Source: Candidatus Parcubacteria bacterium
Lineage (GTDB): Bacteria; Patescibacteriota; Minisyncoccia; Phycocordibacterales; UBA6065
DNA length: 64,000 bases
Assembly: GCA_039796155.1 (NCBI GenBank)
Contig: JBDKKJ010000009.1
Location: forward strand, 15,077 to 79,076
Direction: 5' to 3'
Shown here: in pieces, positions 19,278-22,200 of the stretch
Position numbering within the stretch: position 1 is the first letter of the stretch
Layout: every line of letters starts with the position of its first letter
Program-made: the position numbers and the translations under genes
Notes under the pieces: model-generated
Databases searched by the model: none
Told to the model about the DNA's origin: nothing
The model's input: the letters and a program-made list of their open reading frames with translations, nothing else

Positions 19278-22200
19278 TTGAACCAAGCCTTGAAACAAGA
19301 TTTAGGAAATACCTTAGATAATGCGAACCAGTGGCTCTCTATGTCAGAGGCCGCTTCGCTTACGCCATACTCGGCTGAGTATCTTTCCTTGCTTGCCCGA
19401 AAGAAAAAACTAACTGCAAAGAAGGTTGGAAAAACATGGTATACCACCCGAGGTATTGTGGATGAGTACATGAAGCGCCAGATGATCCGAAACCAGATTC
19501 AGAATGGGAATCTTGCTTCTATCGAGGATATCGCTTCTGCAAGTGTTTCTACAAAGGCGGCGCTTGATAAGACTGAGGAGGTTCGTATGACCGAGATGAC
19601 ACACTCAGATCTCTTTGCAAATCCTGCAATTGAGATTCTTCCTGAAGCTCCATCTCTTGTCACATCTGCTGAACCTAAGGTTTTCCCGGTAGAAGATCAT
19701 CCTCTTACCAAGAAGGTACGTACATTCCACGGTGACCTGAAGTCATACCTCGATGCGTTGCACGGAATCAAGGAATCTGTTGTCCCCGTAGTGAAACCTG
19801 TAATCAAGCCCGTTGCTGAAACCAAAGTTGAGGATGGTCACATTGGCCCACGGCTTTCATTCGCTGATGTATTTGCCCGTGCAAAGCTACACACACGCAA
19901 ACTTACTGACCTTGAAGATGTAGTAACACAAAAGCAAACAACTGAACCCGTTATACGAGATATCCCTGTTGCGCCAAAGATTGGTCCACAAATTCAGGTA
20001 GAAGCTCCAAAACCTGTTGTAGCAGTACAGCCACAGATTATTCCTGCGGCTCCTGTCGTACCACAGAACCTGAATCTTTCATCTATTGAAAAGACTCTTG
20101 CTGACATTTCAAAGAAGCTCGAAGCAATTTCTGAGGCAAAGGTACAGGCAACCGCTCCATCAAAAGACGCTTCTTTGGACTTTATAAACGCACTCGACAA
20201 GAAATTTGCTTCTATTGGTGTTGCTCCTGCACGAAAAAATATCCTTTCACGATCAGTTGCAACGGTGTTCGGTCACAAGGCTATTGCCTTTACGACAATG
20301 GCGGCCATTATTTTCTTTACACTTTTCCCAACACCATTCGTTCACGGCTTCTTTGACAAGGCATACGGTACTGTAAAGAAGGCACTTGGTAGCGCTTCAA
20401 CAGTTATGGGCTTTAGACCAGGAACTCATGAGAATGAGGTTCTTCTACTTGATAAGGAAGGAAATATCTCAATCATGGGTCACATCGAGACCGATGGTCA
20501 GTTCCGTTCATACGCAAAGGACGGTATCGCACCTATAGTTGTAGATTCAAAAACTATGGTTAAGAACCTCAATGCAGAAATGGTCGGAGGTGCACGTGCT
20601 CAGGACTTTACACTCGCGTACGTTACCAAGAATGGAAATATCACCACAGAAGATGTTTTCTTTGATAGCAACGTGGAGGTTGGTAAAACTCTTTTGGTTA
20701 AAGGTGCTACAAAACTTCTCGATAGCGTTTCTGTTGATGGAAATCTCGCGGTGTTCGGTGATGCAAAGTTTGCAAAGTCACTTACCGTAGAGGGTCCTGC
20801 ATATTTCGAAGCAATTATTAATACTAAAGGAATCAAGTCTACCGGTGTTGCAGCGCTCGGTTCAATTACGTCTACAGGAAATGTATCTTTTGGAAAAAAT
20901 GCATATGTTCGTGGATCACTCGAGGTTGGTGCTGCGGTGGTAGCACGACAAGGAATCTTCCAGAGCGGAGGATACTCTGGAGATTTTTCTGCAAATGGAG
21001 AAATTGCACTTGGAAACAATTCAGATGTTCTCACCATTGATTCAAAAAATGTTTCTATCGATAAAGCTGGAAATGCTTCATTCGACGGATCACTTGCGGT
21101 TGCAGGTGATATCACATTAGGTGGAACATTATATGGAAACGACGTTACTCTTGGTGGTTCAACAACAATTTCAAATCTTATTGTTTCTGGCACAACAACA
21201 CTCACAACAATAATTGCTGGTGACGCTTCAACAACTAACGCCACATCAACAAACTTCTTTGCATCAGTTGGTCACATAGTAAATGGTGTTATAGATTCTC
21301 TCACTTCAACATTCGCATCAATTACTACATTGGTTGCAAACGACATTACTGTAGGTGCACTTACTGCGACAAACACAACTGCTGTAAATTCAACAACAAC
21401 CAACGCGACCTCAACTAATCTCTTTGCAACAAATGCAGTTATTGGAAATAGCACAACAACTAACGCGGTCATTGCGAATTCAACAACAACCAACGCGGTA
21501 CTTACCAATGCAACAACTACTAACTCATATATAGAGAGTGGTGTAACAGTGAATGCAACAAGTACAAATCAGTATGCATATAATCTTTCTGCTGATTCAG
21601 CGGCAATCATTAGCGCTGCAATCACAAACCTCAGTGCGGCTACAGGTACTATCGCAAACCTTGCATCAACGAATGCAACACTCGTCAATGCGACAACCAC
21701 ATATTCGACGACCACTAATGCATTCATTGCGAACCTCAATGCAGCGAACGGCACTGTTTCAAACCTCAACTTTGTAAACGCGACAGGTTCAGCAGCTACA
21801 ACTACTTCACTCTATTCAATCGTATTAAAGACGATGTTTGGATCAATCGATACATTTACATCGATGCTCGCTGACATTTCAAACCTCACTGTCACAAACA
21901 GCACAACTACAAACGCAACATCAACAAATTCATTTGCATCAACATCAACTTCAATCAATAGCTCTTCGATTAATGCTTCAACTACAAACCTTTCATTTGT
22001 TAACGCAATAGGAACAAATGCTACAACGACAAACCTTTTCGCGGATACAGCTTCTTCTACCAACTTATTTGCGACAAATGGAGCTGTAGGGAATTTGAAT
22101 GCAAATAGTGCAAACGTTGGATTCGGTACTACAACAAACGCTACTTCAACAAATCTCTTTGTTTCAAACGCAAATATAACAACTGGTACTATTGCAAACC

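Follow-up and report, generated by a model that had tools for sequence, protein, structure and literature searches.

Patescibacteria (CPR) account for a large share of bacterial diversity, most of it uncultured, and very few recognisable regulators are usually ascribed to them. To our knowledge, almost nothing is known about the control of their giant surface proteins, although these are leading candidates for attachment to hosts. In a 64-kb stretch of DNA (hereafter the window), a gene for a giant fibre protein encodes a helix-turn-helix (HTH) domain ahead of the only transmembrane (TM) segment. Why should a surface fibre carry a DNA-binding-type domain at its cytoplasmic end? A preliminary description of the locus had offered two answers, namely that the HTH is part of a DNA-binding regulator spanning the membrane or that it was repurposed for docking, and had taken a small HTH gene upstream for a standalone paralogue. 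The features discussed below are collected in Table 1.

Table 1. Features of the fibre locus, with positions in the window
Feature	Position	Strand	Basis
Small BldC/MerR-like wHTH protein, 93 aa, MSGKFMTIKEAAVFLGVTPLTLRNWDKSGKL...	18119..18400	-	Pfam, homologue comparison
Signal peptidase I, lepB	18454..18984	+	Peptidase_S26 3.4e-32, TIGR02227 3.8e-37
Intrinsic terminator of lepB	19079..19126	+	Hairpin ~19079-19119, then U-run
Distal operator-like site 1, TATCCGATA	19147..19155	.	Exact 9-mer; about -91 to -83 relative to the inferred TSS
Distal operator-like site 2, TATCCGATA	19171..19179	.	Exact 9-mer; about -65
Conserved upstream box TTGTCCCCAGAAAA, variant of the DnaA-box-like TTATC(C/A)ACA of relatives	19184..19197	+	8-locus alignment
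-10 hexamer TATAAT	19226..19231	+	Invariant in 8-locus alignment; inferred TSS ~19238
Proximal palindrome GTACCCGATAC-GAT-GTATCGGATAC, sites 3 and 4, predicted main operator	19250..19274	.	Motif scan, conservation
Giant fibre gene	19290..40046	+	6,918 aa from TTG 19290; uninterrupted ORF, conserved TTG, composition
Predicted cytoplasmic MerR/excisionase-type winged HTH	19332..19502	+	Profile matches, AF2, fold search, conservation
Predicted cytoplasmic linker, low-complexity (A, V, P-rich, many charged residues)	19503..20165	+	AF2, homologue alignment
Juxtamembrane helix, semi-conserved, F..ALDKKF type	20166..20210	+	Homologue consensus F...LD; AF2 helix 293-307
Only TM segment, signal-anchor, predicted N-in/C-out	20283..20339	+	Kyte-Doolittle, positive-inside, AF2 helix
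Peptidase_S74 near the C-terminus	38997..39155	+	Pfam 26.7 bits, cut-off 22

The giant protein and its N-terminal domain

The giant gene lies in a single uninterrupted ORF (19278..40046; 6,922 aa counted from 19278). Its start codon is most likely TTG 19290, which is invariant across eight close relatives; the alternatives TTG 19278 and ATG 19341 were dropped in its favour. In almost all homologues, the start lies 8-31 codons 5' of a conserved Trp. With a start at TTG 19290 the HTH is complete in the product, which answers the earlier reservation that the true start might lie downstream of it. The protein is rich in T, G, S, A and N, and Pfam searches yielded weak matches of the fibre body to the YadA head repeat and to Bactofilin, a beta-helical fold. 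Peptidase_S74 domains are intramolecular chaperones of the tail-fibre/endosialidase type that are associated with trimeric fibres, and the presence of one near the C-terminus fits a trimeric fibre whose tip would be distal to the membrane.

The N-terminus aligned with the full length of two profiles, Pfam HTH_17 (PF12728; 18.2 bits, E=0.003) and TIGR01764 'excise' (17.2 bits), but both single-sequence scores are below the curated cut-offs (27 and 28.8 bits, respectively). A Fic-HTH relative (P0019) scores 26.1 bits against HTH_17. With 15 homologues as input, AlphaFold2 (AF2) modelled the 58-aa domain at a pLDDT of 91.5 and with a beta-alpha-alpha-beta-beta-alpha topology, which is the exact order of elements (beta1-alpha1-alpha2-beta2-beta3-alpha3) of MerR N-domains and excisionases. 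In a model of aa 1-450, the HTH reached pLDDT values of 92-97. Because the HTH profile matched no PDB sequence even at E<=10, we turned to a fold search. The best PDB matches were TraN (pIP501), the RdfS excisionase, BldC (TM score 0.73, rmsd 1.5 A), NmlR and RacA, with Foldseek probabilities of 0.97-0.99 for TraN, RdfS and BldC; CbpM was also among the matches. Fifteen columns are invariant across the HTH homologues, and the HTH A1 segment (60-aa slice) has a net charge of +7.

The first ~70 residues are thus probably a sequence-specific DNA-binding winged HTH (wHTH) of the MerR/excisionase fold, in agreement with the initial assignment. The protein is not a MerR regulator (PF00376/PF13411) in the strict sense, which combines the HTH signature with a C-terminal coiled-coil and an effector domain: Pfam gave no MerR or MerR_1 match in the giant protein, and the HTH is followed by a disordered linker where MerR regulators have their coiled-coil and effector domain. 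An HMM search detected no further copy of the fibre HTH in the window.

Topology and recurrence of the architecture

A Kyte-Doolittle scan of the 6,922 aa revealed one hydrophobic segment only (aa 336-354, numbered from 19278). Its flanks differ in charge, with on average 3.3 K+R residues on the N-terminal side vs 1.8 on the C-terminal side in 67 homologues (p=7e-9), and the same positive-inside bias is found in the window protein itself. This favours a type II (N-in) membrane-anchored surface fibre, with the part before the sole TM segment predicted to be cytoplasmic, as had been proposed. In the AF2 model of aa 1-450, the HTH is confident (mean pLDDT 85) and the TM helix of moderate quality (mean pLDDT 74 for residues 331-350). 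The homologue alignment shows a strongly conserved module directly after the TM segment, for which the AF2 model was too weak for a fold search.

The linker between the HTH and the membrane comprises ~250 aa and is predicted to be mostly disordered, with segments of pLDDT <50 over much of the length of aa ~105-262. It is hypervariable in length and sequence and cannot be aligned among homologues, of which 67 have HTH-to-TM distances of 72-340 aa. Such a linker does not suggest a rigid coupling of the fibre to the HTH.

The survey of related genomes called for in the preliminary description showed that this architecture is common. We found 377 tblastn-confirmed stretches in GTDB species genomes, nearly all from Patescibacteria, and ~68 of the best 80 encode an N-terminal HTH, followed by one TM segment, in a large ORF. 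At the protein level, 3,893 cluster representatives match at E<=1e-3; of the 144 best-matching ones that we analysed, 82 combine an N-terminal HTH with one TM segment, and their lengths reach 6,890 aa. The number of N-terminal HTHs ranges from one to three, and two in tandem are frequent. As we found no description of this architecture or of the motif presented below in open-access papers and bioRxiv, the combination of HTH(s), one TM segment and a huge ectodomain is apparently undescribed.

The small divergent gene

The small gene upstream codes for a genuine MerR/HTH_17-type protein, with Pfam scores of 40.6 bits for MerR (cut-off 28.2) and 32.6 bits for HTH_17, both in excess of the cut-offs. 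This part of the earlier reading stands, whereas its 5' limit of 18385 does not: comparison with homologues places the start at ATG 18400 (MSGKFMTIKE...). The profile of the family matches PDB entries of a MerR-like protein (3qao, 3.6e-7) and of BldC (6amk, 3e-6; 6ama, 1e-5). With 19.7 bits against the BldC model NF033787 (cut-off 77), the protein appears BldC-like in size and fold but outside the BldC family. In our reading, its 93 aa leave it short, devoid of a long MerR coiled-coil or effector part.

The small protein is not a close paralogue of the fibre HTH. Their BLASTP alignment is out of register (E=0.42), the HMM of the fibre HTH does not match the small protein at E<=10, and profile-profile comparison (hhalign) gave a probability of 8% (E 0.004). 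By these comparisons, the two belong to separate families of a common fold class. The two genes nevertheless belong together, for a reason other than paralogy: a homologue of the small gene is encoded upstream on the opposite strand in 55 of 80 related loci.

The gene for signal peptidase I, lepB, and its terminator are located between the small and the giant genes. It occupies the equivalent position in ~31 of the 80 loci, those of the closer relatives, and is absent from more distant ones. A palindrome in the intergenic region between the small gene and lepB (GTATACTATAGTATAC) was discarded as a conserved operator, being limited to the window and one related locus (L001). Repeats of AAGGTTTAT are found at 19000-19018, between lepB and its terminator hairpin.

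A palindrome at the promoter of the giant gene

The lepB terminator is predicted to fold at -22 kcal/mol (z=-5.25; none of 200 shuffled sequences folds equally well). The giant gene should therefore be transcribed from a promoter of its own. We assigned this promoter by conservation, with a predicted TSS at ~19238; the conserved TATAAT, for want of an accompanying -35 box, escaped a sigma-70 consensus scan.

The region proposed earlier as the target (19140-19280) harbours four copies of a palindrome, TATC(C/G)GATA, at 19147-19274, three exact and one with one mismatch. The core of the motif is the inverted repeat CCGATA-N3/5-TATCGG. The exact 9-mer TATCCGATA occurs three times in the window, always within 19147-19273, and thus the fibre promoter is the only one in the window to carry exact sites. 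Nine one-mismatch matches within the fibre ORF, each of them on the minus strand, are probably due to its repetitive coding sequence. The proximal pair of half-sites, which spans about +12 to +36 and precedes the start codon by 15 nt, has a core that is invariant in the 8-locus alignment, and as RNA it would fold into a hairpin of -12.3 kcal/mol. The two distal sites are 24 nt apart, start to start, a spacing also found in promoters of Fic-HTH genes. In addition, the promoter is flanked by a perfect 10-nt inverted repeat (19147-19156 and 19264-19273) whose arms are 107 nt apart.

The upstream box TTGTCCCCAGAAAA is nearly invariant in eight close loci. More distant loci have TTATCCACA or TTATCAACA at the equivalent position, and these elements are also present upstream of giant genes with a different type of HTH. 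The window does not contain an oriC or DnaA-box cluster, with 17 matches to TTATCCACA at one mismatch for 16 expected.

Association of the palindrome with the HTH

The palindrome tracks this family of HTHs. At least two half-sites are present upstream of 73 of 81 genes with a fibre-type HTH, compared with 1.6% of 1,220 control windows. The exact 9-mer has a density of 2.92/kb over the 300 nt that precede the HTH vs 0.032/kb elsewhere. The core, which 59 of 81 loci have in the 400 nt before the HTH, reaches 1.90/kb vs 0.0029/kb elsewhere; the enrichment upstream of HTH-encoding genes is thus about 90-650-fold. The association was also found in the reverse direction: 52 of 103 metagenome stretches containing TATCCGATA-N3-TATCGGATA encode a fibre-type HTH 25-369 nt downstream, while 22 of 75 evaluable metagenome palindromes have none nearby.

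The half-sites are separated by 3 or 5 nt. In all 37 loci with a TATAAT within 80 nt upstream of the palindrome, the gap between the end of TATAAT and CCGATA clusters at 20-23 and 28-34 nt. Extra copies of the motif upstream of the promoter, in untranscribed DNA, are found in the window and several other loci, and many loci have the proximal palindrome only, devoid of the distal arm. An Rfam scan (gathering threshold) of four distant loci with long leaders detected nothing beyond tRNA, and thus no known RNA family for these leaders.

The association extends to Fic-HTH genes of other lineages. In Chloroflexi-type bins, the sites flank the -10 box, and in Bathyarchaeia three sites (<=1 mismatch) are located at about -80, -56 and -38. 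The small protein is absent from all Fic-HTH loci but one (L076), and in that locus the only candidate is a 237-aa MerR-type ORF ~6.7 kb from the sites. Seven CPR loci also have the palindrome but no small-protein gene on the fetched locus (about 10 kb upstream). Conversely, where the small gene is next to a giant gene with a different type of HTH (L009, L022 and L024), CCGATA is missing there and is found instead at another gene of the locus whose HTH is of the matching type. An example of a different pairing of recognition helix and half-site is SDYIGQL...R with CCGAGAT. A conserved site at the gene's own promoter, across lineages and gene contexts, is the pattern of an autoregulated HTH gene. 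Moreover, Fic-HTH genes from other phyla and from archaea have the palindrome together with this HTH, which argues against the proposal that the domain serves purely for docking.

A putative membrane-tethered autoregulator

Since its gene carries the palindrome at the promoter, the fibre probably regulates its own synthesis. The explanation that we favour, and consider reasonably likely, is that the membrane-tethered HTH binds the palindrome and represses its own gene; repression is assumed, solely because of the position of the operator. This HTH family, with PYS(A/Q)EYLSLLAR(K/R) as its recognition region, would recognise TATC(C/G)GATA and its inverted-repeat core. The HTHs of fibres already inserted in the membrane may reach the nearby nucleoid through their long flexible linkers and occupy the operator, thereby blocking transcription at initiation or early in elongation. 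The main operator is predicted to be the palindromic pair that separates the -10 box from the TTG start. The output of a very costly protein of the 0.7-MDa class would then be capped by how much of it is already present. As for the small BldC/MerR-like protein, it is probably a further, independent regulator of this promoter region, which might act through other conserved elements, namely the TTATC(C/A)ACA-like box and GGTTTAT repeats. The earlier idea of a trans-membrane DNA-binding regulator is thus retained in its basic form, that of an HTH family with a cognate palindrome on its own promoters, this one included.

Autoregulation has an experimental precedent in CccR, a protein composed of Fic and HTH domains, which represses its own promoter through inverted repeats (PMC9755527). 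Several points weigh against our explanation. The single-sequence profile scores of the HTH are under the curated cut-offs, the main palindrome of CPR loci is part of the transcribed leader and can form an RNA hairpin, and 22 of the 75 evaluable metagenome palindromes have no fibre-type HTH nearby. A membrane-tethered domain must also locate a single site on the chromosome, and a spacer of two lengths, 3 and 5 nt, is hard to reconcile with a dimer of fixed geometry, whereas it is trivial for a hairpin.

A bolder version, which we regard as doubtful, is that the HTH is a governor embedded in the product and acting in cis on the very copy of the giant gene under expression. The HTH would leave the ribosome first, before RNA polymerase has moved more than a few hundred bases away from the promoter, fold and clamp the +12 to +36 operator of that copy, and the emerging TM segment would then drag the locus to the membrane (transertion). 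This could yield one transcript per inserted fibre, or else repression might be lifted only on engagement or cleavage at host contact, which would make the protein a bacterial Notch-like contact sensor.

Alternative explanations

The first alternative to a tethered autoregulator is that the palindrome acts mainly as RNA, as a leader hairpin before a start codon devoid of a Shine-Dalgarno sequence that would stabilise the 20.8-kb mRNA or gate translation initiation. The co-occurrence with the HTH would then be indirect, or the HTH might bind RNA or another target. In CPR loci, the palindrome is always downstream of the -10 box, within the transcribed leader, 0-30 nt before the start codon, and it abuts the ATG in L009, L014 and L021. 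The loop of 3 to 5 nt and the stability of the hairpin, in the window and in L040 (-9.9 kcal/mol), suit this idea, but the hairpin is weak in some clades (L013, -6.0 kcal/mol, z=-1.2). The outer flanks of the stem covary (TAT..ATA vs ATG..CAT), yet symmetric covariation is equally expected of a DNA site bound by a dimer, and the sequence of the stem is kept across phyla beyond what mere pairing demands. Furthermore, single self-palindromic 9-mers are found in untranscribed DNA upstream of the promoter (19147 and 19171 in the window), and the sites of Fic-HTH genes flank the -10 box or the archaeal TATA region with a 24-nt spacing, an arrangement for which no inter-site hairpin is expected. We therefore consider a role mainly as RNA to be unlikely.

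Another possibility, compatible with autoregulation and extending it, is that the protein transduces signals as a one-component system. Operator occupancy would be altered by contact of the fibre or load on it, or by regulated proteolysis releasing the HTH (ToxR/CadC-like or Notch/anti-sigma-like), and engagement of a host cell by the fibre would reprogramme transcription. The combination of a cytoplasmic wHTH, one TM segment and a large ectodomain resembles membrane-bound one-component regulators, and the semi-conserved juxtamembrane helix, the conserved module after the TM segment and the proximity of signal peptidase I in ~31 of 80 loci are also consistent with it. However, the linker is hypervariable (72-340 aa) as well as disordered, we identified no sensor, protease or cleavage motif, more distant loci are devoid of lepB, and the exact motif marks the fibre gene alone in the window, with no wider regulon visible. 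Signalling of this kind thus seems improbable to us.

Could the palindrome instead be the target of the small BldC/MerR-like protein or of another factor, with the fibre HTH a non-DNA-binding docking or assembly module? The small gene encodes a bona fide MerR-type HTH and, as a divergent neighbour conserved in 55 of 80 loci, has the classic layout of a regulator and its target. HTH folds are sometimes reused for protein contacts, and CbpM is among the fold matches of the fibre HTH. However, the palindrome is present where the small protein is not, both at Fic-HTH genes of Chloroflexi-type bins and Bathyarchaeia and in the seven CPR loci, and it is missing in L009, L022 and L024 where the small gene adjoins a giant gene with another HTH. 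We regard this assignment as quite unlikely.

Lastly, a RacA-like tether between nucleoid and membrane, or an excisionase/RDF-like switch inverting the promoter by means of the 10-nt repeats, is brought to mind by RacA and excisionases among the fold matches, by the perfect inverted repeat around the promoter and by the fact that phase-variable promoters are common for adhesins, but is very improbable, as the sites are confined to the fibre's own promoter rather than chromosome-wide, no recombinase is encoded by the neighbouring genes scanned, TATAAT precedes the palindrome in 37 of 37 loci, and many loci are devoid of the distal arm.

Implications

The architecture spans thousands of protein clusters, and the predicted operator, TATC(C/G)GATA or CCGATA-N3/5-TATCGG, can be tested directly without culturing the organism. 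The locus is also linked to the very large Fic-HTH family of Bathyarchaeia and Chloroflexi, which apparently uses the same HTH-operator pair. If confirmed, autoregulation by the fibre would extend membrane-tethered transcription factors to a new class of HTH and would represent feedback built directly into a structural protein. Should the HTH act in cis on the gene copy under expression, the very large surface proteins of ultra-small episymbionts would be subject to a regulatory logic that is new.

Comparison with known systems

ToxR, CadC and TcpP have an N-terminal cytoplasmic wHTH, a single TM segment and an extracytoplasmic C-terminal part, and bind to promoters as membrane-anchored proteins. 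The fibre protein has the same predicted organization, N-in and single-pass with a cytoplasmic DNA-binding domain. In contrast, their HTHs are of the OmpR/PhoB type, of which we found no trace in the first 374 aa of the fibre (no Trans_reg_C match at E<=1), that of the fibre being of the MerR/excisionase type. Their ectodomains are small sensors, whereas the fibre has a 6,500-aa repetitive ectodomain with no recognised sensor domain, and the predicted target of its HTH is its own gene.

BldC, RdfS and other Xis/RDF proteins and TraN (pIP501) share the fold of the fibre HTH (TM scores 0.66-0.73, rmsd 1.5-2.6 A) and, like it, are devoid of the MerR coiled-coil and effector domain. Such small wHTH proteins bind short repeats, often cooperatively. 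BldC, RdfS and TraN are soluble stand-alone proteins, in contrast with an HTH fused to a linker, a TM segment and a fibre, and the sequence similarity of BldC is to the small upstream protein rather than to the fibre HTH. The Bacillus subtilis chromosome anchor RacA, also a fold match with its MerR-like wHTH, links specific DNA sites to the cell envelope. RacA is soluble, is recruited via DivIVA and binds many GC-rich sites around the origin, whereas the fibre motif is confined to one promoter.

The Yersinia pseudotuberculosis protein CccR, a Fic protein with a C-terminal HTH that is an autorepressor, behaves as we predict for the Fic-HTH relatives, but its HTH domain and its operator (AGATAATCAT-N26-ATGATAATCT) differ from the fibre-type pair (PMC9755527), and it is neither membrane-anchored nor related to fibres. 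Finally, the trimeric tail-fibre and endosialidase proteins of phages likewise have a Peptidase_S74 domain near the C-terminus and a repetitive, beta-rich body. They have neither an N-terminal TM anchor nor a cytoplasmic HTH, whereas the giant protein described here combines both with its fibre.

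Architecture of the giant fibre protein

The giant ORF of the window encodes a product of 6,918 aa, in which T, G, S, A and N are abundant. Only one hydrophobic segment was detected in 6,922 residues by a 19-residue Kyte-Doolittle scan. The body of the protein gives weak Bactofilin and YadA-head matches, and a Peptidase_S74 intramolecular-chaperone domain scoring above the Pfam cut-off lies close to the C-terminus, followed by a Pro/Thr/Glu-rich tail. Together, these features identify the product, on sequence grounds, as a fibre-like surface protein. The surrounding genes are ordinary chromosomal ones (Mur ligase, RmuC, L21, YqeY, GAPDH and ribulose-phosphate epimerase), and the GC content is 44%. 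The closest related locus, L001, belongs to a MAG of Candidatus Paceibacterota, and almost all relatives are Patescibacteria. Beyond the LamG genes that follow the fibre gene lies one for a protein with a type-IV-pilin N-methylation motif; this protein and the LamG proteins may have an accessory role in adhesion.

Residues 19-68 of the ORF match Pfam HTH_17 and TIGR01764 over the whole length of the models, with single-sequence scores below the curated cut-offs of both. The HTH block is nearly invariant among homologues, 15 columns being fully so. Searching the PDB with the HTH sequence profile gave no match. An AlphaFold2 (AF2) model built on the homologue alignment (pLDDT 91.5) shows the element order beta-alpha-alpha-beta-beta-alpha, as in MerR/excisionase winged helices, and its top PDB fold matches are all DNA-binding: TraN (pIP501), RdfS excisionase, BldC (TM 0.73, rmsd 1.5 Å), NmlR and RacA. 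A 60-aa slice with the HTH contains 11 K/R versus 4 D/E. The preliminary description had considered a true start codon downstream of the HTH. The start is not located there, because TTG 19290 is invariant in an alignment of eight close loci (19278 is not) and a start codon lies 8-31 codons ahead of a conserved Trp in nearly all homologues. The HTH is real and complete in the product.

No N-terminal signal peptide was detected, and the sole TM segment is at aa ~332-350. The 15-residue flank preceding the TM contains on average 3.3 K/R in 67 homologues, with a net charge of +3.0, versus 1.8 K/R and +0.2 after the TM (Wilcoxon p=7e-9), a positive-inside signature that predicts an N-in anchor. The segment linking HTH and TM is unalignable and 72 to 340 aa long. 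Much of it has pLDDT < 50 in an AF2 model of aa 1-450; better modelled are the TM helix and a juxtamembrane helix, semi-conserved, of the F..ALDKKF type. A strongly conserved module of ~90 residues (motif ..APIVVDS.T.V.NLNA) directly follows the TM. It is the best-conserved part of the ectodomain across the family, with low AF2 confidence, and the sole Pfam match in this region is a weak one to Bactofilin ~100 residues past the TM.

A search with the HTH alignment, using a single genome for each GTDB species, gave 377 stretches that tblastn confirmed. In ~68 of the best 80 loci, the HTH is at ORF residues 25-60 and one TM at 130-410, followed by a long ORF that mostly runs off the contig. Deviating from this layout are two stand-alone proteins (91-94 aa), four Fic-HTH proteins, in which the HTH is C-terminal, and three proteins of 450-580 aa, each with three TMs. 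A full scan with HMMER, covering 1.84 billion cluster representatives, gave 3,893 proteins at E<=1e-3, 1,514 of them at E<=1e-10. An N-terminal HTH plus one TM is present in 82 of the 144 top representatives analysed, with lengths up to 6,890 aa; tandem HTHs precede the TM in many of the 144, as two copies in 100 and three copies in four, against a single HTH in the window protein. HTH-TM giants of a second type, with the recognition region GYxxDY(I/L)GQLxRxG, sometimes occur in tandem with the first.

Features of the window and of related loci
Feature	Sequence	Position or members	Context
Small upstream gene		18119-18400	93 aa, from homologue comparison
GGTTTAT direct repeats	AAGGTTTAT, twice, 10-nt period	19000-19018	just after lepB
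Site	TATCCGATA	19147	between lepB terminator and start codon
Site	TATCCGATA	19171	between lepB terminator and start codon
DnaA-box-like box	TTGTCCCCA in window; TTATCCACA or TTATCAACA in relatives	19184-19197	
TATAAT		19226-19231	
Site	TACCCGATA	19251	between lepB terminator and start codon
Site	TATCCGATA	19265, other strand	between lepB terminator and start codon
Giant ORF		19278-40046	uninterrupted
Hydrophobic segment		20283-20339	
Post-TM module		20340-20640	
LamG and pilin-motif proteins		40393-41922, 41949-42374, 42554-43807, 45769-46278	three Laminin_G_3 (LamG; concanavalin-like lectin) proteins directly downstream of fibre gene, same strand
Tandem-repeat loci		L013, L018, L022, L037, L040, L054, L056, L060, L064, L066, L077	intergenic
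Leader examples		L044 9700-9975; L056 9700-9905; L064 7150-7360; L073 7700-7900; also L034, L039, L057, L078	
Second-type giants		L009 2945-; L022 906-; L024 3435-; L031 ~7500-	
Tandem-HTH examples		P0020, P0036, P0082, P0139 (representatives P0020-P0163); L071, L080	
Fic-HTH set		L184-L188, L063, L075, L076, L079, L121; P0019, P0164-P0282	

The small upstream gene and lepB

The product of the small divergent gene is a genuine MerR-type HTH protein, whose family profile matches MerR-like 3qao, BldC and mycobacteriophage Xis in the PDB. Sequence and profile comparison led us to reject it as a close paralogue of the fibre HTH. The initial observation of an HTH at the cytoplasmic end of the fibre and another upstream was essentially right, with the coordinates now corrected and the term 'paralogue' dropped. 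Judged by gene order, the small gene is a conserved partner of the fibre gene: 55 of 80 loci have a homologue of it a few hundred bases ahead of the HTH-TM gene, on the opposite strand.

In ~31 loci, the closer relatives, lepB lies between the two genes, an adjacency that raises the possibility of processing near the post-TM module. The terminator of lepB in the window is a strong hairpin (-22 kcal/mol, z=-5.3), and the fibre gene therefore has its own promoter.

A palindrome at the fibre promoter

All three exact TATCCGATA copies of the 64-kb window fall among the four sites upstream of the fibre gene; we estimate the chance expectation at about 0.5 exact copies per 128 kb. Together, the sites at 19251 and 19265 make up a palindrome, GTACCCGATAC-GAT-GTATCGGATAC. 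Its core and the TATAAT show no variation among the eight aligned loci, and the box at 19184-19197, TTGTCC(C/A)CAGAAAA, is nearly invariant, with one variable position; the DNA around these elements has diverged.

Across 81 loci, the exact 9-mer reaches a density of 2.92/kb within 300 nt ahead of the HTH, versus 0.032/kb in the other 1.04 Mb. The core CCGATA-N3/5-TATCGG is present upstream in 59 of these loci (1.90 versus 0.0029/kb), and at least two half-sites occur in 73 of the 81 upstream regions versus 1.6% of 1,220 control windows drawn from these loci. Distances from the end of TATAAT to the palindrome cluster at 20-23 and 28-34 nt. A reverse search found TATCCGATA-N3-TATCGGATA in 103 metagenome stretches: 52 have the start of this HTH 25-369 nt downstream, 22 have flanks of adequate length but no such HTH, and the other 29 are too short for a decision.

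Six high-GC metagenome contigs (L084, L093, L097, L149, L164 and L169) share a 21-nt palindrome, TATCCGATAC(C/G)GTATCGGATA, adjoining GGATCCCGG tandem repeats. No HTH of the fibre family was detectable near it in these contigs; a similar site may here be in use by an unrelated element, perhaps that of a phage or plasmid.

Association of the motif with the fibre-type HTH

In Chloroflexi-type bins (L075, L076 and L079), Fic-HTH genes have sites both within the core promoter and on its flanks; their start-to-start spacing of 24 nt equals that of 19147 and 19171 in the window. The family of Fic proteins with a C-terminal HTH comprises >7,700 proteins at E<=1e-20, many from Bathyarchaeia. Its HTH has its recognition sequence in common with the fibre HTH, and EYLSLLAR is found in 117 of the 119 homologues listed. 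Bathyarchaeia genes fetched independently have three sites with at most one mismatch at ~-80, -56 and -38 from the ATG; we estimate the chance rate of such sites at about 0.05 per 260 nt. Promoters of the Fic-HTH set hold two to three TATC(C/G)GATA-like sites with 24-nt spacing, and these Fic enzymes are probably subject to autorepression. In L186-L188, the second gene downstream of Fic-HTH belongs to the ParE toxin family.

Homologues of the small upstream protein are absent from all of these Fic-HTH loci but one, L076, where there is only a 237-aa MerR-type ORF about 6.7 kb from the sites. None was found on the fetched locus (about 10 kb upstream) in seven CPR loci with the palindrome. In L009, L022 and L024, the small gene adjoins a second giant gene with a different recognition helix (GYxxDYIGQLxRxG). 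CCGATA is absent at the second-type giant genes, and a CCGAGAT/ATCTCGG heptamer adjoins the -10 in three of four of them, a weak hint of possible helix/operator covariation. In its distribution, the motif tracks the HTH type of the fibre rather than the fibre body or the small protein.

Other elements in the upstream regions

Giant-gene promoters of the window and of L013-L078, including those of giant genes with a different HTH type, have a DnaA-box-like TTATC(C/A)ACA box ~30-45 nt ahead of the -10, and directly divergent loci have a second, inverted copy upstream of the small gene's promoter. DnaA boxes show no overall enrichment in the window. Direct repeats of the form (A/G)GTTTAT-N4-5-GTTTAT recur in related intergenic regions near the small gene's promoter; the GGTTTAT repeats are a candidate operator for the BldC-like small protein. 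In many loci, lineage-specific tandem repeats of 7-8 nt period lie between two TTATC(C/A)ACA boxes, their sequence varying by genome (AGGAATT x5, TTTAAATA x3, TGAAAAT x4). The box and both kinds of repeats are candidate targets of the small protein or of DnaA.

About 20 more distant loci have a ~200-nt fibre-gene leader after the palindrome, missing in the window's clade. It consists of a GC-rich hairpin, a conserved GGAATGCAC(A/G)C and a second, terminator-like hairpin with a U-run. An Rfam scan of four leader loci at gathering threshold returned tRNA only. This leader may be an attenuator or riboswitch-like.

Proposed mechanism and alternatives

The best-supported reading of these comparisons is that the fibre acts as a membrane-tethered autoregulator, which we consider somewhat probable. 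The cytoplasmic HTHs of inserted fibres would bind the operator at ~+12 to +36 plus two distal sites, and its occupancy would limit more transcription of the 20.8-kb gene. We infer repression rather than activation from where the operator lies: in CPR loci it follows the -10, and in Fic genes it covers the -10 or TATA region. The fibre HTH would presumably act without release from the membrane, the operator being reachable thanks to the flexible linker and a very small cell. S74 domains occur in trimeric fibres, and the one found here suggests such a fibre. A trimer would gather three HTHs, and many relatives have two HTHs per chain; either arrangement would suit paired sites.

The main rival, that the palindrome works as an RNA leader hairpin, appears unlikely. 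The palindrome is always transcribed in CPR loci, occupies the place of a ribosome-binding site and has a hairpin-like spacer of 3 or 5 nt. However, copies exist in non-transcribed DNA, isolated 9-mers are palindromic by themselves, the hairpin is weak in some clades (-6 kcal/mol, z=-1.2) and Fic promoters hold sites where no such hairpin is expected. RNA-hairpin and DNA-operator roles are not mutually exclusive. Signal transduction via contact, the more ambitious idea of the preliminary description, or via proteolysis is similarly improbable. The proposal, in that description, of a DNA-binding TM regulator is supported in the form of autoregulation by strong comparative evidence, and as such seems somewhat more likely than not to hold.

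Comparison with known systems

Searches of open-access papers and bioRxiv, including with motif and peptide strings, found no account of this architecture or motif, and a preprint on the giant genes of bacteria is silent on HTHs. The Fic+HTH protein CccR, experimentally shown to be an autorepressor acting via inverted repeats (PMC9755527), is a functional precedent, but its HTH and operator are different. By fold, the fibre HTH belongs with the excisionase/BldC-type MerR-like domains, whereas by sequence it is below the family cut-offs. The functionally closest known systems are the membrane-bound one-component regulators ToxR, CadC and TcpP. However, their defining OmpR-type HTH is absent from the Pfam hits of the first 374 aa of the fibre protein, which is therefore not a member of that group. 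Transcription factors tethered to the membrane are already known; what is new is the class of HTH, its fusion to a giant fibre and the predicted operator.
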